DNA from: Clostridia bacterium
GTDB lineage: Bacteria; Bacillota; Clostridia; Oscillospirales; UBA644
NCBI GenBank assembly: GCA_017440085.1
Contig: JAFSHW010000038.1
Coordinates: 8,245 to 72,244, forward strand
Direction: 5' to 3'
DNA: 64,000 bases
The notes beneath the pieces were generated by a model. That model was not told the origin of the DNA. It saw only the letters and a program-made list of their open reading frames with translations, and ran no database searches. Positions 3,285 to 64,000 of the stretch are shown one piece after another. Both the position numbers and the translations under genes were made by a program. Positions within the stretch are counted from its first letter, which is position 1. The number at the start of each line of letters is the position of its first letter.

Positions 3285-4376
3285 ATGAAAAAACAAGCGA
3301 AAAACAAACGTGATTCAGTTTCTGTATTGGGCGGTTTGATAATTTTGGGGGCAGTTTTAGGCTGCGCGCTCATAGCAGAATACGGAACCAAAGAAGAAAT
3401 TCAAATACCGGAAATTTATTACACTCCACCGTCTCAGGCAACTATTCCAAATCTTTACGACCCTGAAAACGGCTCGGATAGTGACCCATCAGTTGATACA
3501 CTTCAGCCAGCTGACCCAAATCTCACAGATAGAAACGAAGATGGGGTAATTGACGAAGCGGATCTTTTACCAAGAGAAAAATACGATTTACCCTATCCTC
3601 AAACAGAACGCCCTGAGGACGTTAAGGCTATGATAGTTCAGCACTCCGCAAGGTCAGGCTACGAATACTTCGATAATTCAGTCTTTTTAGGCGACAGCGT
3701 AACCTTGGGTCTGAAAAATTACGCCACGAAAAAACGCCAGACGGACAGTTATTTCTTAGGTGATGCAAAGTTTATTGCCGTGGGAAGCTACAGCGTGGCT
3801 GACACATTAGTACCCCTTGAATCACCAAATTCAATTCACTCCCTTTATAATGGAGAAAGAATGCAACCGCAGGATATAATTGCTCGTATGGGCGTGAAAA
3901 AGGTATTTATTTGCCTTGGGCTTAACGACGTGGGGATTTACACTCAAAAGGAATATCTGACAAACTATTCAATTCTCATAAACAGAATCAGAAAAGAAGT
4001 TGAAGACGTACAGATTGCGATTCTTTCCGTAACGCCTCTCACTTTGGAAGGCGAAAGGAAAACTCTTTATAACGAAAGAATTGACAGATACAACAACGTT
4101 CTTGCAGCTTTTGCAAAAGAATACGGCTGTTATTTTATTGACGTCAGCCAAGTGTTGAAAAACGAAGAAGGATACCTTGCGGACGAGCTTTCAAGTGACA
4201 ATTACTGCCACCTTGAACCCACGGCTTACGATGCTTGGATTGACTATATGCTTACCCACTGCATTCCAACCCCCGAAGAGGAAGCGGCAATTGCCGACGG
4301 AAATCAGGGACCCCTCCACATTGACAAAGGAATTCCCGAAGTTGAAGGTTGGGAAGGCTCAGCGGGCGAGCCATAA
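3285..4376 (+). CDS. membrane-anchored SGNH/GDSL-family hydrolase
   Basis: N-terminal TM anchor. Block I FLGDSVT, block III GLNDVG, block V DNYCHL. Confidence 0.7.
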   Translation: MKKQAKNKRDSVSVLGGLIILGAVLGCALIAEYGTKEEIQIPEIYYTPPSQATIPNLYDPENGSDSDPSVDTLQPADPNLTDRNEDGVIDEADLLPREKYDLPYPQTERPEDVKAMIVQHSARSGYEYFDNSVFLGDSVTLGLKNYATKKRQTDSYFLGDAKFIAVGSYSVADTLVPLESPNSIHSLYNGERMQPQDIIARMGVKKVFICLGLNDVGIYTQKEYLTNYSILINRIRKEVEDVQIAILSVTPLTLEGERKTLYNERIDRYNNVLAAFAKEYGCYFIDVSQVLKNEEGYLADELSSDNYCHLEPTAYDAWIDYMLTHCIPTPEEEAAIADGNQGPLHIDKGIPEVEGWEGSAGEP

Positions 4377-6263: not shown

Positions 6264-7358
6264 TTGGAATCTAGAGACGATCTTTCATTGGCGTACACTC
6301 CGGGTGTAGCTCGCCCCTGCCTTGAAATTCAAAAGAATATAAATAAAAGCTACGAGTTGACAAGACGCTCGAATTTGGTAGCCGTAATTACCGACGGCAC
6401 GGCAGTTTTGGGCTTAGGAGACATCGGTCCGGAAGCGGGAATGCCCGTTATGGAAGGAAAATGCGCTCTTTTCAAGGCGTTTGGAGACGTGGACGCTATT
6501 CCTCTTTGCGTTAAATCGAAGGATGTTGACGAAATCGTTCGCACCATTAGTCTTATTTCGGGAAGCTTCGGCGGCATAAATTTGGAAGATATTTCAGCCC
6601 CCAGATGCTTTGAAATTGAGAAAAAGCTAAAAGAATGCTGTGATATTCCCATTTTCCACGATGACCAGCACGGCACGGCGGTGGTGGTTTTGGCGGCGAT
6701 GATAAATGCGGCAAAGGTTACGGGCAGAAAATTAGATGAAATGACAATCGTAATCAACGGCGCAGGAGCTGCAGGACAGGCAATTGCGAAACTTCTTTTG
6801 ACAGCTAACGTGGGTGACCTTATTCTCTGCGACAAAAACGGAATTATTTCTGATACTGAAATTGAGCCGGACTCCAGAAGAGCGATGGCAAGAATTACCA
6901 ATAAAACAAATAAAATAGGACTTTTGGCTGATGCACTCAAAGGGGCGGATGCGTTCATAGGCGTTTCTGCGGCAAATTTGGTAAGTGAAGAAATGGTTCG
7001 CTCAATGGCTAAAGACCCAATAATTTTCGCAATGGCTAACCCCAGCCCTGAAATTATGCCGGAAAAGGCGAAAAATGCAGGTGCAAAGGTTGTGGGAACG
7101 GGAAGAAGCGACTACCCCAATCAAATCAACAACGTTTTGGTCTTTCCCGGAATTTTCAGAGGAGCGCTTGACGTTCGTGCAGCGGACATTAACGACCAAA
7201 TGAAGCTTGCAGCAGCTTACGCCATTGCAGAATTGGTTACGGAGGACAAACTCTCCCCCGAATTTATTATTCCATCTGCGTTGGACAGCAGCGTTGTTAA
7301 AGCAGTAGCCCCTGCAGTTGCAAAAGCGGCAAGAGACAGCGGCGCGGCTAGAATATAA
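6264..7358 (+). CDS. NAD(P)-dependent malic enzyme (the uninterrupted part; the natural ATG at 6189 is separated from it by an in-frame TAG at 6216-6218)
   Basis: DLSLAYTPGVA, FHDDQHGTA and the GAGAAG Rossmann motif. The region upstream in the same frame reads MDYSEVSLQ*HSEWKGKIEVICRVPLESRDD, which is the normal malic-enzyme N-terminus. Confidence 0.85.
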   Translation: MESRDDLSLAYTPGVARPCLEIQKNINKSYELTRRSNLVAVITDGTAVLGLGDIGPEAGMPVMEGKCALFKAFGDVDAIPLCVKSKDVDEIVRTISLISGSFGGINLEDISAPRCFEIEKKLKECCDIPIFHDDQHGTAVVVLAAMINAAKVTGRKLDEMTIVINGAGAAGQAIAKLLLTANVGDLILCDKNGIISDTEIEPDSRRAMARITNKTNKIGLLADALKGADAFIGVSAANLVSEEMVRSMAKDPIIFAMANPSPEIMPEKAKNAGAKVVGTGRSDYPNQINNVLVFPGIFRGALDVRAADINDQMKLAAAYAIAELVTEDKLSPEFIIPSALDSSVVKAVAPAVAKAARDSGAARI

Positions 7359-7362
7359 TAAT

Positions 7363-7392
7363 AAACCCGACTTGAAAATCAAGTCGGGTTTT
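7363..7392. terminator. bidirectional hairpin terminator (malic enzyme side)
   Basis: Stem acccgacttga / tcaagtcgggt with a 3-nt loop, flanked by an A-run and a T-run. Confidence 0.65.
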
Positions 7393-7402
7393 ATTGATAC
7401 AA

Positions 7403-7432
7403 AAAATCCTGCGGAACAATCCGCAGGATTTT
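7403..7432. terminator. bidirectional hairpin terminator (adhesin side)
   Basis: Stem aaaatcctgcgga / tccgcaggatttt with a 4-nt loop. A-run on the plus strand gives a U-run for the minus-strand transcript. Confidence 0.65.
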
Positions 7433-7449
7433 ACGTTATTTAAGCTATA

Positions 7450-10400
7450 TTAAGCCTTTTTCTTTTTGAAAACTGCAATACTCAAGAATCCAAAGATAAA
7501 TCCAAGTGCAATCATTACGAATCCAATGCTGTCTGTGGTTCCGGGGTTCACAGGGTCATCGGGATCTTCGGGATCTTCAGGGTCAACGGGAGGATCAACG
7601 GGAACGTCGGGGATGATAGGATCATCAGGATCTTCTGGGTCTTCAGGATCATCGGGAACGTAAGGTGTGTAATTGTAAATATTCTCGAATTCCGCAACTG
7701 CCATATCAACCTGAGTGCCGTCCAATGTGACGATAGTGTTGATTCTGTTACCGCCGCCAAGGTAAACGTAAACAGTGATAGTATGTTCAACTCTGCTGTA
7801 TTCAACGTTTTCTCTGCCGCCGTTTACTTCGTACATCTTATAAATATACGTATGACCAATGTCAGACTCGCTGAACATCAAGCTGAAAGCTGCCAAACCG
7901 TCTTTGCCGGAAGTAGCTCTGTAAGTTCTGCCTTGAGTTACGTTGTAAAGCACGAATTCAAAGCCTTCGGGTCCGATTACTTCGGTGCCAACGTTCTTAA
8001 CCGTCTTATGAGCGAGAACGTTCATAACTACGGGAGAAGGAGCAGGTGTGTAGTAATTTACAAACTTAATTCCGTTTGCAGGAGCGTGATTGCTTCCCTT
8101 TGTAATTACGGGAACGCCCGCTACAAGCTGACCTGTTCCGTCGTCGGAAACATCAATGGAAACGTAATAAACACTTCTATCGTAAGTAACGCGAGCCATA
8201 GGAACGGAAGTATCTTCCATAACCACGAAGTAATAAGTCTTAGGTTCTGTGAGGGAAATATTTCCAAAGCTGAATGAACCGTTTGCGCTGTTATAAGCTG
8301 TCTTGGGAGCGATTTCGTTATTGATAGCGAAGTTACTGTCTGCTGTATAAAGCATAAATCTGAATTCGCTATTGCCGAGGATTCTGCCCCAAAGCTCTTT
8401 TACACCGCCGATAACGGTTGAGGTTGCCGTAGGCTGATACTTATTAGTAAAGTTGAGGCCTTCAACGCTCTGACCTGTGGGGCCACCGGCGCCACCGAAG
8501 TCAGTCTTTCCATTGGAATCTTCAACCCAAACGAATGCATCGATATAATCAGTATCACCACGAACGACAACTTTAATCTTGTATTCGTTGCTATCGTACA
8601 CGATGCCGTTAATTTTTTGACCTGCATACTTTTCTTTAAGAACGAAGTAGTAAGTCTGGCCTACGTCTTCCGCTGTGCAAACAAGAGTCATTCCGTATTT
8701 ACCGCCAACTTCGTTTGCAGTTGTGATAAACGCACCACCGGTTATTTCGTATTTATCGTTTGCGGGGTAAAGTTCGAACGTGAAATCTCCGGGGTTGAAC
8801 GCTTTATCAAAGAATTTCTGACCTTCGAAGTAAATGACGTATGTGCCATTGAAAGTATTGGTGAAGTCAAGACCTGAAATTGTTACGTTATCAGGGTCAA
8901 TTACAGTATAACCACTGTTGAGTGCCGCACCGTCAGAACCGAATTTCTGAACGAAAAGCTTAGCGGATGCTGTGCCGTCTTCATTATCAATAATTTCAAC
9001 GGATACGCGGTATTCATTAGTATCAGTAACTATCAAATTGTTTTGAACTGCAGCTTCTTTAATTACGTAGTAATCAATATTTCCAATGTCATCAAGGGTA
9101 ATATTGGAATAATCAAGGGAGAAGCTGTATGCACCGTTGATATTCTGAGCAGTAACAGGAGTTACGTTTTCAGTAGCATAATTGGAATCTGTCTTGTAAA
9201 GCTCAAATGTAAAGGAATTATCAGAGAAAGGAATGTTGTAAATTTTATTACCTGCGAGAGTGATTGAGATATTTCCGCTTACGGAATATTCGTTTTTAAA
9301 GTCGATACCGTTGAGCGCAATATTTTCATTTACTTTTGAAGTAAATTCGCCATCGCCAATCTTTACGGAAGCCTTTACTTTACCGTCTCCGTTATCTTCA
9401 ACCTTAACGGTAACGTGGTATTTAGTTTCATCATACGAAACGCCGCCTAAAGTTCCTGCTTCTTCTTCGATTACGTAATAATATGTATTGCCAACGTGAG
9501 TTTCATCGTAAGCAAGCTCAAATTTAAACTCGCCAAGGAACTGGTCGTTAACTGTGTAAGTTTCAACCTTGCTGTATCCGTTTTCTACTGCATTTGCAAA
9601 TGTGGAATCAGTTTCATAAAGTTTGAAGCTGAATTTACCTGCTTCCAAAACTTTGCCGATAAGAGTCTTCGTACCTGAAAGTGTTACGTTTACGTTGCCC
9701 TTAACAGTATAGGTATTTGTGAAGTCGAGATTTTCAAGCTCTGCACCTGAAACTTCGGAAGCGGTTGCTTCAATTCCACCAAATCCGTTATCTTCCACAA
9801 CAACTGTAAGAGTATAAATCTTTGAGTCGTATGTGATACCGTCTATTGCCTGCGAAGCGTTTACTTCTTTAATGGTGTATTCATAAGTTCCGATGTCATC
9901 TTTGCCGTAGTTGAAGGTGTAGCTCCAAGTGCCGTTTGCAAGAATATCTACGGTACTGAGTTTATCGTTGCCTTTGTAAATTTCTACCTTGAAGTCGCCG
10001 TCTTCGAAAGTCTTATTAAAGGACTTTTCGCCCCCAACAGTTACGGAATCAGCCGCATTTTCAGAAACAGCATAGGTATTTGTGAAGTTGAGTTTTTCAA
10101 TCTCTGCACCTGAAACTTCGGAAGCGGTTGCTGTGATACCACCCTTGCCGTCATCTTTAACTTCAACCTGAATTTTGTATTCCTTACTATCGTAAGTGAT
10201 ACCGTCTATTGTCTGACCTGCATTTTCTTCCTTAACTACATAGTAGTAAGTTTTATTTAAATCGTCTTTGGTGTAATTAAGAGCGAATGAATATTTCTTA
10301 TCAGCATCGTTCTTCACCGTTGCGGGAGTAGAACCATCTTTAATCGTGTAAGAATCATCATCAACGCTATAAAGCTGGAAAGTAAATTTATTTGCGCCAA

Positions 10401-60096: not shown

Positions 60097-61119
60097 CTAA
60101 CACGATTTGGTTATTTTTACGAATCTGAAGCTCTCGTCTAAAAAGGGAACTTCGGATATTTTTATCTTAACGCCGTATTTTTCTTCAAGATGCAGAATAT
60201 TACACCGCTTCTGTCCGTTCATTTTTGAGATGCAGCCTTTTTCCACTTCAAAAATAAGATTTTGTCCAAAATTCCCGTGGGAAAGCTGCTTTTCAGCCTC
60301 TTTCAGATATAAGCGGGAAATAACCATTTCACCAAGCGCAGGGTGGAAGCCTCCGCCCAGAACGGAATCGGACTGAACCAAATCAGAAGAATGAAGCCCT
60401 ATACGGAGTATTTTTATACCCTTTTCAATGAAGATTTCTGCCATTTCAGCGGCACGAAAAACAGCCTCGTCAACGGTTAAAGGCTCATACTCCCCCGCTT
60501 GCATCATATCCGCAAGGCAGGTATCTTTCACAACAACGCAGGGGTAAATTCGCACCGCATCAGGCTCAAGTGCCGCCGCAGATTTGGCAGTAAAGAGAGT
60601 TTTTTCCAAAGAATCGCCTGGCAGTCCAGTCATAAGCTGAAGAACAAGAGAAAAACCGTATTTTTTTATGAGCCGAGAAGCTTTTTCTATGGCTTCCGCC
60701 CTGTGACCACGTTTGGAAAGTTCAAGGACATCGTCGCAAAAGCTCTGTGCTCCCAACTCCACGGCAGTAACGCCGTACTCCCGCAAAATATCCAGAATAT
60801 TTTCGTCGATATAGTCAGGCCTTGTGGAAAGGCGGATTCCCGTGATTTTAGGATTTTCTTCCATTACCCTTTTTGCGGCGCTTAAATATCTGCGCATTTC
60901 ACTTTCGCCGATACCCGTAAAGCTTCCACCGAAAAAGGCTATATCTGCGGAAGTGAATTTTTCGTCAAGCTCCCCTGCCGCCTTGGAAAGAAAGCCGTAA
61001 ACGTCAGCAATAACCTCTGCCGTGCCCGAAATACGCCGCTGGTTGCAAAAAACGCAATCGTTAGGGCAAGCAAGATGGGGCACAAAAACGGGGATATTCG
61101 CGTGAAGAGCCTTCGCCAT
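60097..61119 (-). CDS. radical SAM protein (ELP3/YhcC-like, typically found next to rnc in Clostridia)
   Basis: CPNDCVFC CxxxCxxC cluster motif near the N-terminus. Confidence 0.7.
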   Translation of the reverse strand: MAKALHANIPVFVPHLACPNDCVFCNQRRISGTAEVIADVYGFLSKAAGELDEKFTSADIAFFGGSFTGIGESEMRRYLSAAKRVMEENPKITGIRLSTRPDYIDENILDILREYGVTAVELGAQSFCDDVLELSKRGHRAEAIEKASRLIKKYGFSLVLQLMTGLPGDSLEKTLFTAKSAAALEPDAVRIYPCVVVKDTCLADMMQAGEYEPLTVDEAVFRAAEMAEIFIEKGIKILRIGLHSSDLVQSDSVLGGGFHPALGEMVISRLYLKEAEKQLSHGNFGQNLIFEVEKGCISKMNGQKRCNILHLEEKYGVKIKISEVPFLDESFRFVKITKSC

Positions 61120-61835
61120 TAAAGCTCAACTCCCATAGAGAGAAGTGCTTCCCTTGCGGCGGACTGCTCTGCCGCTTTTTTGGAATGACCGCTTGCTGTA
61201 GCCATTACGTTGGAATTTATTTTCACCGAGCAAAGGAAAATTTTATCGTGAGCAGGGCCTTGCTCGTCTACGATTTCGTAAGCAAGCTTATCCCCTCGAT
61301 TTTTCTGTACTATCTCCTGCAAAAGGGTCTTATAATCTTTGAACCCTGCAGAAGAGGTCTTCATCGCGGCAAAACGCTCTTTGATAAATGGTAAAATGAA
61401 GGCTTTTGCTTTGTTCAAGCCGCCATCAAGGTAAATTGCGCCCAACACAGCTTCAACAGCATCAGCCAATGTGGAGGGGCGGACCCTGCCGTCTTGAGCT
61501 TCGCCTTTGCCAAAAAGCAAAAAGCTGCCAAGGTCAAGCTGTTTTGCAAATTCGTAAAGTGATTCTTCGCAAACCAAAGCAGCTCGAGTTTTCGTCAAAC
61601 TGCCCTCGTCTTCCCTTACGGTCTTGTAAAGCAGCTCGCCCGTAATAAGCGAAAGGACGGAGTCCCCCAAAAATTCCAAACGCTCGTTTGAAACCACAAT
61701 TCCCTTGTGCTCGTTTTGGTAAGAAGAGTGGGTAATGGCGTCGAAAGCCAGCTGTCTGTCGTCAAATCTATAATCAATGCGCTCCTCCAAGAGCGTTATT
61801 TTGCGTTCCGCTTCGTTAAGAACGCTTTCCATCAT
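61119..61835 (-). CDS. rnc: ribonuclease III
   Basis: NERLEFLGDSVL signature plus a C-terminal dsRBD (GPAHDKIF...GHSKKAAEQSAA). Confidence 0.9.
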   Translation of the reverse strand: MMESVLNEAERKITLLEERIDYRFDDRQLAFDAITHSSYQNEHKGIVVSNERLEFLGDSVLSLITGELLYKTVREDEGSLTKTRAALVCEESLYEFAKQLDLGSFLLFGKGEAQDGRVRPSTLADAVEAVLGAIYLDGGLNKAKAFILPFIKERFAAMKTSSAGFKDYKTLLQEIVQKNRGDKLAYEIVDEQGPAHDKIFLCSVKINSNVMATASGHSKKAAEQSAAREALLSMGVEL

Positions 61836-61853: not shown

Positions 61854-62087
61854 TCAGCAATTTTCCACGTATTTGCAAAGGTCGCCTACTGTGGAGAGTT
61901 TTTTCATTTCCTCTTCATCGGGAAGAATATCAAATTCCTCTTCGAGAATCATAGAGATTTCAACAACGTCAAACTCGTCCGCATTCAAATCCTCGTAAAG
62001 ATCCGTTTCGGGAGTGATGTCGGAAGAGGGTACGTCAAAAATCTCTTCAAGAATTTGAGTTATTTTAAAAAGAATTTCAAGATTCAT
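61854..62087 (-). CDS. acyl-carrier-protein homologue lacking the phosphopantetheine-attachment serine
   Basis: ACP-like 77 aa in the syntenic position upstream of rnc. The motif reads DLNADEFDVVE where ACPs have D-L-G-x-D-S-L-D-x-V-E. The codon is GAG, checked on the DNA. Confidence 0.65.
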   Translation of the reverse strand: MNLEILFKITQILEEIFDVPSSDITPETDLYEDLNADEFDVVEISMILEEEFDILPDEEEMKKLSTVGDLCKYVENC

Positions 62088-62163
62088 ACGTAAACAAACC
62101 TGCCTTTATATTTATAGTTAATTTTTCGTATTTGCGTTGCGAAAAATACTCTCGGTTGTATTC

Positions 62164-62192
62164 AGTATAACACACGCTTCTCCGTTTGTCAA
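62164..62192 (-). promoter_or_regulatory. sigma-A type promoter of the ACP-like/rnc unit
   Basis: On the minus strand: TTGACA (62192-62187), 17 nt spacer, TATACT (62169-62164) with TG extension. Confidence 0.55.
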
Positions 62193-62254
62193 CAGCTTTT
62201 CCTTCCCCCAGCCACCACCTGCATTTGCAGGGCGGTCTCGGCGGTTGGGGGGAG

Positions 62255-62330
62255 TTATTTCGTCAACTCCTGATACATTTTCATAAGTTCCGCCACGCAC
62301 TCGGATTCGGAATTGAGTTTGCGCTAAAAG
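62255..62330 (-). pseudogene. relic 3' end of an MmeI-like DNA methyltransferase gene (last ~22 codons plus stop)
   Basis: The minus-strand translation F*RKLNSESECVAELMKMYQELTK* parallels the live gene end FWGKLNSEAECVSELIKMYQELTK* at 63242-63313. By hand alignment, 52/66 nt are identical. Confidence 0.8.
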
Positions 62331-62345
62331 CAATAACAGAAAAAA

Positions 62346-63218
62346 TTATTCTTTAAAAAAAGATTCTCCACATAACCCTAAATACTCTATTGGATCCATT
62401 GAATATTTCCAAATATTATTGCAAATAGAATACAAATGACATATGAAAGCTTTTATGTACTCAGGATAATCTATTTGTGAATTATAATTTGAATTCAACA
62501 GTAATGTTTCATTATTAGATATAACATATATTGGATAAGGAAAAACTTTTTTTTCACTTAAATCCCCATTTTCTTTTTCAAACTTCTGTTTAAAATCAAC
62601 AGATGCCTTTGAAAAATCAAGGCAGTATGCAAACACTCCATCCTTCAAGCTCAATATAACACTATGCCAATACTTTGGGTTTATATCTCCATATATTTCA
62701 TTTAAAGAAAGATCTTTAAATTGAAAATCCAACTTATTACATACTAAAAATGATCCTATAGTATTGTCTGTCTCATTCTTACTTACCTGTTCAGGAGCCC
62801 CAACATTTCGCTCTTCCAAAATTGTTTTTTTATTCTCAGCCATTTTTCGAAGGGCCTTTATAAACTCTTTTCTACTCATAGTTGATTTTATTTCACCTAT
62901 CATTTGCACAGATTCTGCAGGGAACATTTGAGCAGTATTTGAAGAAATCAGAGTAGGGATGTTTGCATCATAAACAATTACATCACATTGCGTTGTATGC
63001 TTATTATTTTGCGTTATAATGAAACCATCAGCTATACCAAATTTTTTAGGCAAAACAGTACGTAACAATTCTTTAAAAGCTCTTTCTCGATATTGTCCAT
63101 ACTCACCCATATGAAAGATTTTGCTATCATCTCTATAGATATCGCCTGCATCGTCATAGCACTGTAAAAAACTATTAATTTTCTCATCAAGTAATGTTTT
63201 ATAAATATCAGAAGCCAT
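62346..63218 (-). CDS. PD-(D/E)xK-type nuclease-fold protein (DUF6602-like, from memory)
   Basis: The motif order E(45)...D79 (QCDVIVYD)...E109-I-K111 (IGEIKS) fits the PD-(D/E)xK core. The gene is visibly AT-rich. It starts 23 nt after the methyltransferase stop. Confidence 0.55.
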   Translation of the reverse strand: MASDIYKTLLDEKINSFLQCYDDAGDIYRDDSKIFHMGEYGQYRERAFKELLRTVLPKKFGIADGFIITQNNKHTTQCDVIVYDANIPTLISSNTAQMFPAESVQMIGEIKSTMSRKEFIKALRKMAENKKTILEERNVGAPEQVSKNETDNTIGSFLVCNKLDFQFKDLSLNEIYGDINPKYWHSVILSLKDGVFAYCLDFSKASVDFKQKFEKENGDLSEKKVFPYPIYVISNNETLLLNSNYNSQIDYPEYIKAFICHLYSICNNIWKYSMDPIEYLGLCGESFFKE

Positions 63219-63241
63219 AAATTCACCTTTTCCTTTATTTT

Positions 63242-64000
63242 TTATTTAGTTAATTCCTGATACATCTTAATAAGTTCCGAAACACATTCCGCCTCCGAAT
63301 TAAGTTTACCCCAAAAGCCGTAAGCTTCCATAACTGCCTTATCGTTAAGCTGATGTGCCTTGCGAAGTTCGGGAGGCATGGTCAGTTCATCGTAAAGGTC
63401 AGCAAGTGAGCTGTCGGGATATAAAGCCCTTGCGTCAAGAATAGCCTGCGCAGTCCTTTCAATCTTTAGTTTCTGTGCTTCCGTAGGCGTAGGCCATGGG
63501 AAATTATTGTAAACAATATTAATTGAATACTGATAACTTGGTCCATAATATCCACAAGTGGCACGCATCCACGCCATGTGAACATTTGACGTTAACATTC
63601 CAAATTCATAGAGGGTAGCATTTTCAACAATACGAAGTTTATTTCCAACAACAATTTCAGGTGTCATAAAATCTATCGGTATGTATTTTCTATTACCTGA
63701 TGAAACTTCAGGTAGAGCAATATAGTTTGTCTCGGGTTGCTGATTTTCATCAAACAACATTGGAGTTTCAGCCTTTTTCCTAGTTGCTGCTTTAGAACTG
63801 TTCAGACGAAAATTTCTAACGGCTTCAATTCTTTCCATTATATATTTATTCTTACGTATATTTGAAATATTGGCACCCACTAACCACAAACAATATCTTG
63901 GCTTTCTATCTATAAAATCTTTTCCCATCATAAATTTACGAAACAAATTTTTAGTTTCAGGATATCGACTTATAAAATCCAAATATTCAGCTTCGGTATA
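63242..64000 (-). CDS. MmeI-family (type IIL-like) DNA methyltransferase / RM enzyme, C-terminal ~250 aa only (5' part outside window)
   Basis: The frame is open to base 64000. RYCLWL, NRKYIPIDF, HMAWMRATCG, IVYNNFPWP and SLADLYDELTMPPELRKAHQLNDKAVMEAY match the TRD/C-terminal blocks of MmeI-like enzymes as I recall them. Confidence 0.6.
   Translation of the reverse strand, partial: YTEAEYLDFISRYPETKNLFRKFMMGKDFIDRKPRYCLWLVGANISNIRKNKYIMERIEAVRNFRLNSSKAATRKKAETPMLFDENQQPETNYIALPEVSSGNRKYIPIDFMTPEIVVGNKLRIVENATLYEFGMLTSNVHMAWMRATCGYYGPSYQYSINIVYNNFPWPTPTEAQKLKIERTAQAILDARALYPDSSLADLYDELTMPPELRKAHQLNDKAVMEAYGFWGKLNSEAECVSELIKMYQELTK

Follow-up and report, generated by a model that had tools for sequence, protein, structure and literature searches.

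The locus described here raises a simple question: does a nuclease gene located directly behind a restriction-modification (RM) gene belong to the RM system, or is it a defense gene in its own right? The gene in question encodes a protein of 290 amino acids (aa) and lies near one end of a 64,000-nucleotide (nt) stretch of DNA from a Clostridia bacterium (hereafter, the window; GenBank assembly GCA_017440085.1, contig JAFSHW010000038.1, positions 8,245 to 72,244), downstream of the 3′ part of a gene for an MmeI-like enzyme. The original prediction, made from the sequence of the window without database searches, proposed a PD-(D/E)xK nuclease fold followed by an uncharacterized C-terminal half, and offered two explanations for the position of the gene, a split RM arrangement or an independent defense effector riding with the methyltransferase. 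The evidence presented below argues for the latter. We consider it somewhat better than an even bet that the gene encodes a stand-alone NucC-fold nuclease of the ~290-aa subfamily of DUF6602 proteins, a defense effector of the same kind as the integron-borne Damona of Vibrio cholerae, which arrived as a cassette behind the MmeI-type gene.

A predicted NucC fold with a conserved catalytic center

The protein matches the Pfam family DUF6602 (PF20247) with a score of 86.6 bits against a cut-off of 27 (E-value 1.2e-24), residues 30–129 covering positions 3–101 of the 104 in the profile, so that the family assignment suggested in the original prediction holds above the gathering score. The N-terminal ~100 residues also match the PADLOC (v2.0.0, which predates Damona) profile PD_DExK, described as "CAS-associated" (E 1.8e-30), and the same residues match the profiles of NucC (E 4.7e-18) and of the NucC-type effector of the cyclic oligonucleotide-based antiphage signaling system (CBASS; E 2.7e-17); a scan of the protein against NCBIfam gave no meaningful match. 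A phmmer search of the PDB sequences retrieved NucC chains only (7ZGV, 6UXF, 6P7O, 6P7P, and 6Q1H; E 2e-8 to 6e-5, residues 33–131). An AlphaFold2 monomer model, built on 21 homologs, has a mean predicted local distance difference test score of 85 and a predicted template modeling (TM) score of 0.86, and includes a long N-terminal helix (residues 4–28). In a Foldseek search of the PDB with this model, the top 14 matches are all NucC (E 9e-13 to 4e-10, target TM score 0.64–0.74, about 290 aligned columns); the first match outside NucC is BbvCI at E 2e-3, and Bse634I and Cfr10I are likewise matched weakly. Because the whole model superposes on NucC, the C-terminal half, described as uncharacterized in the original prediction, is not a separate domain but the rest of the predicted NucC fold, which spans the entire protein with ~50 extra residues.

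The residues of the ordered E...D...ExK series lie on a restriction endonuclease-like core, as they do throughout the PD-(D/E)xK superfamily. Given the strength of the DUF6602 and PD_DExK matches, this motif is not a chance occurrence. E45, D79, E109, and K111 show little or no variation in the alignment of the 21 homologs; in an alignment of 240 family sequences, E45, D79, E102, E109, K111, and S112 are conserved in 98–100%. The D79/E109/K111 signature singled out in the original prediction is thus kept in the homologs, and its codons fall inside the span assigned to them (62886–62984). E45, D79, E109, and K111 align with E39, D73, E104, and K106 of NucC, the last three of which form the active site of the Escherichia coli enzyme (Lau et al., bioRxiv 10.1101/694703). 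Longer relatives, of 350–480 aa, contain no informative extra Pfam domain; the single FKBP_C match among them probably reflects a fusion in gene calling. Taken with the structure model, these observations identify the protein as a predicted full-length NucC-fold PD-(D/E)xK nuclease of the DUF6602 family with an intact catalytic center.

A divergent signal pocket and no linked cyclase

NucC is the textbook example of a restriction-like nuclease that is switched on by a cyclic-nucleotide alarm. In the E. coli enzyme, cyclic triadenylate (cA3) is contacted by R53, Y81, T226, and V227, and the latch of the gate loop is formed by H136 and Y141 (bioRxiv 10.1101/694703). Across the 240 relatives, 25% of the sequences have R at the counterpart of R53 (K59 in the present protein, column 59), the others having N, K, D, or S there, and the counterpart of Y81 (I87, column 87) is T, S, A, or I; the equivalent of T226, placed by hand near M274 from the order of helices, is variable as well. 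Four true NucC genes were recovered from Pseudomonadales genomes, and one of these (L132) lies directly behind a gene for a TRIP13-like AAA+ protein, as expected for a type III CBASS operon. A profile-profile comparison of the family with these recovered genes yielded a probability of 98%, which applies only to the alignment of query residues 32–134 with NucC residues 25–129. Residues 137–154, where the gate loop of NucC is located, are the most variable part of the family, with insertions and deletions and the lowest model confidence. In the C-terminal half, the 240 relatives conserve F157, L158, C160, Y176, H185, N186, L189, S190, Y198, F258, and Y279.

The distribution of cyclases was surveyed around the family genes and across the genomes that carry them. 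No cyclase was detected among the neighbors at 80 family loci. In a census of 40 carrier genomes, a SMODS protein was found in 9, and neither a SMODS domain nor a Cas10 palm in 27; full-length matches to the Cas10 palm were present in about 6 of 41 carrier genomes, the remaining Cas10 matches being partial and GGDEF-like. Wherever the contigs permit the comparison, the SMODS and Cas10 genes are far from the family gene. In the genome from which the window derives, a metagenome-assembled genome (MAG) of 0.76 Mb that is 62% complete, no SMODS-type cGAS/DncV-like nucleotidyltransferase and no Cas10 palm were found. Signaling by cA3 was rejected on the non-conserved pocket residues together with the cyclase census: judging from the sequences compared, the nuclease possesses neither the cA3 contacts of NucC nor a linked cyclase.

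The MmeI-like enzyme has a nuclease domain of its own

The contig that contains the window (C31) ends 781 nt past it and cuts the MmeI-like open reading frame (ORF) after 512 codons, which encode MmeI_Mtase with the NPPF motif, the target recognition domain (TRD), and the C-terminal domain. The PADLOC model of type IIG enzymes places the missing start of the gene at the end of another contig, C29 (profile positions 3–218). There, the gene (L089, 1461–2192) starts 40 nt after plsX and encodes a full MmeI_N domain (positions 2–181 of 181) along with the beginning of the helical spacer. Across the two contig ends, the five Pfam domains of MmeI follow one another in order, with ~190 codons falling in the gap. 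Whether the N-terminal nuclease motif of this enzyme is intact was a question that the original prediction had raised; residues D65, E76, and K78 of the C29 piece align with D70, E80, and K82 of MmeI (PDB 5HR4), its catalytic residues (Morgan et al. 2009, PMC2731913). The split RM arrangement considered in the original prediction was rejected on the basis of this N-terminal nuclease domain.

The pairing of the two genes is not repeated elsewhere in the data. A tblastn search with the MmeI-like protein retrieved nothing at the 80 GTDB loci of nuclease homologs or on a few homolog contigs fetched earlier, and in the reverse direction, no such nuclease was found within 1.5 kb downstream of 29 MmeI-like genes from the same order. 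With an MmeI-like neighbor at 0 of the 80 homologous loci, the pairing reflects insertion of a cassette rather than a conserved two-gene system. We infer that the nuclease is functionally independent of the MmeI-type enzyme and that the locus carries two layers of defense, not one split enzyme; of the two explanations offered originally, it is the independent effector that agrees with the nuclease fold and with the presence of homologs among defense genes.

The composition of the MmeI-like gene is mosaic. In the part located on C31 (L002, 3487–5025; from window position 63242 to the contig end), the GC content is 0.49–0.57 around the methyltransferase motifs, 0.27–0.37 in the TRD and the remainder of the methyltransferase domain, and 0.43–0.50 in MmeI_C; the N-terminal part on C29 has a host-like GC content at third codon positions (GC3) of 0.49. 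This pattern may stem from a TRD swap or may only reflect constraint that differs along the gene.

Insertion of the nuclease gene and displacement of the old MmeI end

The features of the locus are listed in Table 1. The nuclease gene is bracketed by two 82-nt direct repeats 987 nt apart: in one of them, the MmeI-like gene has its live 3′ end; the other, which starts 10 nt after the nuclease stop codon, is a dead version of such an end. The dead copy reads YCF-stop-RKLNSESECVAELMKMYQELTK-stop and the live end reads YGFWGKLNSEAECVSELIKMYQELTK-stop. The ends of related MmeI-like genes resemble the dead copy more than the live one, and from this resemblance and the position of the dead copy it follows that the nuclease came with a foreign MmeI 3′ end and that the resident end was stranded. 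The nuclease gene was thus acquired in a ~1-kb cassette, and the 82-nt remnant is what survives of the MmeI 3′ end displaced by it; the cassette brought the replacement end with it and pushed the old one downstream. A second MmeI-end remnant was found neither within 1.5 kb downstream of the 29 related MmeI-like genes nor at 5 further loci.

Composition sets the nuclease gene apart, as noted in the original prediction: its GC content is 0.299 (GC3 0.22), compared to 0.472 in plsX, 0.469 in rnc, 0.42–0.47 in the flanks, and 0.419 across the window. The 23-nt gap between the MmeI-like stop codon and the nuclease gene, given in the original prediction and recovered here by measurement, contains no promoter-like or terminator-like site on the minus strand; the nuclease is probably co-transcribed with the MmeI-like gene, from the MmeI promoter, and this spacing is consistent with the co-transcription proposed originally.

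The two genes together are an insertion in an otherwise conserved neighborhood. In all 10 relatives of the same genus that were examined, plsX, acpP, and rnc are contiguous, with a plsX-acpP gap of ~30 nt; because of this synteny, C29 and C31 adjoin. The MmeI-like gene and the nuclease gene make up an island of ~4 kb inserted between plsX and acpP (62088–64000 plus the C29 end). At the downstream edge of the island, the hairpin that follows the remnant is probably the structure with which the MmeI unit originally ended. The promoter predicted next to it would restore the expression of acpP and rnc, which in the relatives directly follow plsX. The product of the acpP-like gene reads ...NADEFDVVE... 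at the D-S-L phosphopantetheine site, that is, Glu in place of Ser.

Table 1. Features at the nuclease locus, in window coordinates.
Feature	Position	Strand	Details
rnc	61119-61835		follows the acpP-like gene
acpP-like gene	61854..62087	-	right-hand flank of the island; Pfam PP-binding, E 8e-10
Predicted strong sigma-70-type promoter	62164..62192	-	TTGACA-17 nt-TATACT with TG, 11/12 matches; at the island edge, reading into acpP-rnc
GC-rich hairpin	62203..62254	-	directly after the remnant stop, no U-tract; about -37 kcal/mol for the folded 101-nt stretch, z -2.9
Dead MmeI-like 3′ end	62255..62336	-	77% identity to copy A; TAG in place of TGG
Gene for the NucC-fold PD-(D/E)xK nuclease, DUF6602 family (predicted)	62346..63218	-	290 aa; ATG start
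Catalytic codons of the nuclease	E45 63084-63086; D79 62982-62984; E109 62892-62894; K111 62886-62888	-	
Spacer with Shine-Dalgarno sequence	63219..63241	-	23 nt, after the TAA of the MmeI-like ORF; AAGGTGA (GGTGA core)
Live 3′ end of the MmeI-like gene	63242..63323	-	last 26 codons and stop; copy A of the 82-nt direct repeat
3′ part of the MmeI-like type IIG/IIL RM gene	63242..64000	-	TRD and MmeI_C; Pfam and PADLOC type IIG REase-MTase

Orphan MmeI_C fragments, consisting of the end of the TRD and MmeI_C with no gene body upstream, occur at L127 (G098:C12, 5657–6060) and L126 (G275:C19, 4375–5052). They are 71–76% identical to the copy in the window, compared to at most 61% for full-length homologs; one follows a gene for a 1112-aa T5orf172/ResIII protein, and the other lies beside a Fic gene. 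At L129 (G310:C89, 1276–5530), Hachiman genes, for HamA and a DEAD/ResIII helicase, lie directly behind an MmeI-like gene, whose stop codon overlaps the start of the next gene. Other defense genes appear to settle on the 3′ side of MmeI-like genes in the order to which the window's bacterium belongs.

Spread, mobility, and neighborhoods of the family

The family is large and patchily distributed. A profile search retrieved 281 cluster representatives at E ≤ 1e-30, 1,417 at 1e-10, and 5,599 at 1e-3. Family members were identified on 127 plasmid records, always annotated simply as "DUF6602 domain-containing protein." Phage genomes yielded two weak matches only, and no structural match to the nuclease was found among the viral models in BFVD; on these two results, a phage origin was rejected. 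Only one of 15 genomes of the same genus has a homolog, and a distant one at that, so the nuclease gene is accessory. Some of the closest homologs (L003, L009, and L186; ~44% identity), on contigs of the Acutalibacteraceae/Oscillospiraceae type, each lie behind a gene resembling the tRNA/rRNA uracil-5-methyltransferases, with a gap of ~60–70 nt; this placement may represent one old insertion inherited by related species.

Repeats flank the gene at some other loci as well. Diverged direct repeats of 96–350 nt, 77–92% identical, bracket it at four of them (L019, L052, L060, and L079). Compared with control genes, such repeats are only weakly in excess (5 of 73 versus 10 of 379, p = 0.08) because whole integron arrays inflate the control count. 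At L029 (Flavobacterium) and L048, and at L037 by the flank-repeat control alone, the gene lies within an array in which attC-like repeats enclose each ORF. These arrays, such as the one at positions 4000–12000 of L029 (Flavobacterium sp.), consist of short ORFs on the same strand and imperfect ~130-nt repeats ending in ...AACGTTR..., and they look like integron-type attC cassette arrays of Bacteroidota in which the NucC-fold gene is one cassette. Among the DUF6602 genes of Vibrionaceae, about 8 of the 28 with testable flanks are bracketed by ~120-nt repeats. One of the Vibrionaceae proteins (L157) has 290 aa, belongs to the same subfamily, is 33% identical to the present nuclease over residues 1–200, and is encoded between 121-nt flanking repeats.

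The neighborhoods were examined across three genes on each side of the family gene at the 80 GTDB loci, with genes called by a simple longest-ORF rule. All-against-all clustering of these neighbors produced no dominant family, and a conserved partner gene was therefore rejected. The largest cluster, present at only 7 of the 80 loci, comprises proteins of ~450–540 aa that combine a Schlafen AlbA_2 domain, HATPase_c_4, and a winged helix-turn-helix domain (L016, positions 6437–7948; L055, L073, L018, L032, L065, and L079); in three cases, the gene lies directly upstream of the nuclease gene on the same strand, with a gap of 14–52 nt. This protein may be an optional sensor or regulator partner. 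The Pfam matches of 86 adjacent genes on the same strand are scattered and include AbiH, a type I R subunit, EcoRI methylase, GmrSD_N, AbiJ, and DUF4062, along with TOTE primase, HNH, and YbcO; the DNA methyltransferase families among them are limited to EcoRI_methylase (1) and DUF1156 (1). The original prediction held that a lack of enrichment near RM or defense genes would speak against a defense role. Counted as matched families, not as proteins, 146 PADLOC families were hit at E ≤ 1e-10 by genes within 2.5 kb of the nuclease gene versus 20 by as many genes located over 5 kb from it; those near it include PDC-S01, AbiLi, AriA, HmaB, REase_I, and HEC-06. Neither this condition nor the other one named originally, the lack of a nuclease-fold match, refutes the prediction.

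Alternative explanations

Several other accounts of the nuclease have to be weighed against these data. If the nuclease were a true NucC-type effector, a CBASS or type III CRISPR (clustered regularly interspaced short palindromic repeats) system encoded elsewhere in the genome would produce its activator, cA3 or a similar cyclic oligonucleotide. The full-length NucC fold and the matches to the PADLOC NucC and CBASS-effector models speak for this account, and in a genome that is 62% complete, a cyclase could have been missed; it is nevertheless very unlikely, given that the R53 and Y81 equivalents are not conserved in the relatives, that the profile similarity ends at residue 134 and the gate-loop stretch is variable, that 27 of the 40 carriers have neither a SMODS cyclase nor a Cas10 palm, with none adjacent where they are present, and that no cyclase was found in the window's genome. 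That the nuclease serves the MmeI-like system, either as its separate cleavage subunit or as a second restriction endonuclease, while the methyltransferase of that system shields the host DNA, we regard as highly improbable. The probable co-transcription across a 23-nt gap devoid of a terminator, the relationship of NucC-fold enzymes to type II enzymes (reflected in the weak matches to BbvCI, Bse634I, and Cfr10I), and the MmeI 3′ end carried by the cassette, which implies that in the donor, too, the nuclease gene stood behind an MmeI-like gene, all fit such a role. Against it, the MmeI-like enzyme already has a nuclease domain with intact D, E, and K, there is no MmeI-like gene at the 80 homologous loci or next to the closest metagenomic homologs, methyltransferases are nearly missing from the list of adjacent genes, and the 29 MmeI-like genes of the same order have no nuclease behind them.

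Two further accounts take the nuclease as an autonomous enzyme. It is quite unlikely, in our assessment, to be a modification-dependent, type IV-like nuclease that acts alone on modified phage DNA: the stand-alone gene with no methyltransferase partner, the defense neighborhoods, and the occurrence on plasmids are compatible with this idea, but no modification-reading domain is recognizable, the NucC fold accounts for the whole protein, and the enzyme would have to tolerate the N6-methyladenine (m6A) introduced by its co-transcribed neighbor. Alternatively, the gene might be a selfish mobile element that cuts alleles lacking it in the manner of homing endonucleases, with defense secondary or absent. 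The diverged direct repeats here and at the four other loci, the patchy occurrence within the genus, the tight insertion behind unrelated genes, and the very low GC3 could all be read this way. Still, NucC-type enzymes are nearly sequence-unspecific (bioRxiv 10.1101/694703), integron/attC capture accounts for some of the mobility without involving the nuclease, the repeat excess is weak, and a DUF6602 cassette conferred phage resistance experimentally (bioRxiv 10.1101/2024.07.02.601686), so that we consider a selfish element unlikely.

Most likely, then, the nuclease is a typical representative of the single-gene phage-defense cassettes, a class described only recently, and, as the comparisons suggest, would act alone as an effector of the Damona kind. 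It would be held inactive until an infection cue other than cA3 appears, would be switched on, perhaps, by assembly of trimers into a hexamer, the route that NucC uses, and would then cut DNA. Several points weigh against this interpretation. The nuclease is likened to Damona by description, not by sequence; the co-transcription is deduced from gene spacing; the MmeI-like ORF is broken by the contig gap of ~190 codons, across which its integrity is inferred; many of the carrier genomes are incomplete MAGs, as is the window's own, and the absence of a cyclase from them is not proof; and the conserved Y176, H185, N186, Y198, F258, and Y279 could line a remodeled ligand pocket. Rather unlikely, in our view, yet consequential is an extension of this last point, namely, that the ~290-aa subfamily keeps the oligomeric allostery of NucC with the pocket rebuilt from these six residues for a different ligand, either phage-derived or a host signal. 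If so, a single protein, with no need for a cyclase, would combine sensor and effector and spread as a one-gene cassette.

The findings reach beyond this locus. The nuclease belongs to a large group of proteins, amounting to ~280 clusters at E ≤ 1e-30 and ~5,600 at E ≤ 1e-3, that share the NucC fold without the contacts for the alarm molecule or a gene for its synthesis and that spread as cassettes of one gene. As a small protein with clear catalytic residues, the nuclease is a simple test case for how such enzymes are restrained and triggered. The locus also illustrates the stacking of defense genes, with a cassette spliced onto the tail of a restriction gene and an island that supplies the downstream essential genes with a putative promoter. 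In terms of annotation, the analysis corrects a tempting misreading of the gene pair as a split RM system.

Comparison with known systems

The closest structural relative of the nuclease is NucC (PDB 6P7O, 6P7P, 6Q1H, 6UXF, and 7ZGV). The two share the predicted fold over the whole chain, the HPGxxGxxxE helix, and the spacing of the active site, D-x29-ExK in the nuclease and ID-x30-EAK in NucC, along with the long N-terminal helix, the element responsible for hexamer packing in NucC. The nuclease differs from NucC in being ~50 aa longer, in the lack of conserved equivalents of R53 and Y81 and, in a hand alignment, of T226, in the region of the latch residues H136 and Y141, which are not alignable because the profile similarity stops at residue 134, and in its genomic setting, away from any cyclase, HORMA/TRIP13 pair, or Cas10. 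The upstream gene resembles the MmeI family (PMC2731913; PDB 5HR4) in the domain order read across the two contig ends, which is an N-terminal nuclease, a helical spacer, a gamma-class m6A methyltransferase (NPPF), a TRD, and a C-terminal domain, and in catalytic D, E, and K that align with those of MmeI; it departs from the family in that the incoming cassette supplied a new 3′ end.

The mode of insertion resembles the C-terminal displacement at loci of Rhs and contact-dependent inhibition toxins, as well as homology-facilitated illegitimate recombination, in that a new end is spliced in together with a passenger and the old end is orphaned downstream. At the present locus, however, the displaced piece is just 26 codons of a conserved helical tail rather than a variable toxin domain, and the passenger is a nuclease instead of an immunity gene.

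Functionally, the nearest counterpart appears to be Damona, a single DUF6602 gene from the chromosomal integron of V. cholerae that has validated anti-phage activity and that the Cas PD_DExK and CBASS endonuclease profiles likewise recognize (Darracq et al., bioRxiv 10.1101/2024.07.02.601686); a later preprint calls this system poorly understood. The present copy differs from Damona in its location, outside of an integron and behind an MmeI-like gene in a Clostridia-type MAG. The features that the nuclease shares with the description of Damona are a single gene, the DUF6602 family, matches to the Cas PD_DExK and CBASS small-endonuclease profiles, and relatives that are integron cassettes in Vibrionaceae and Bacteroidota.

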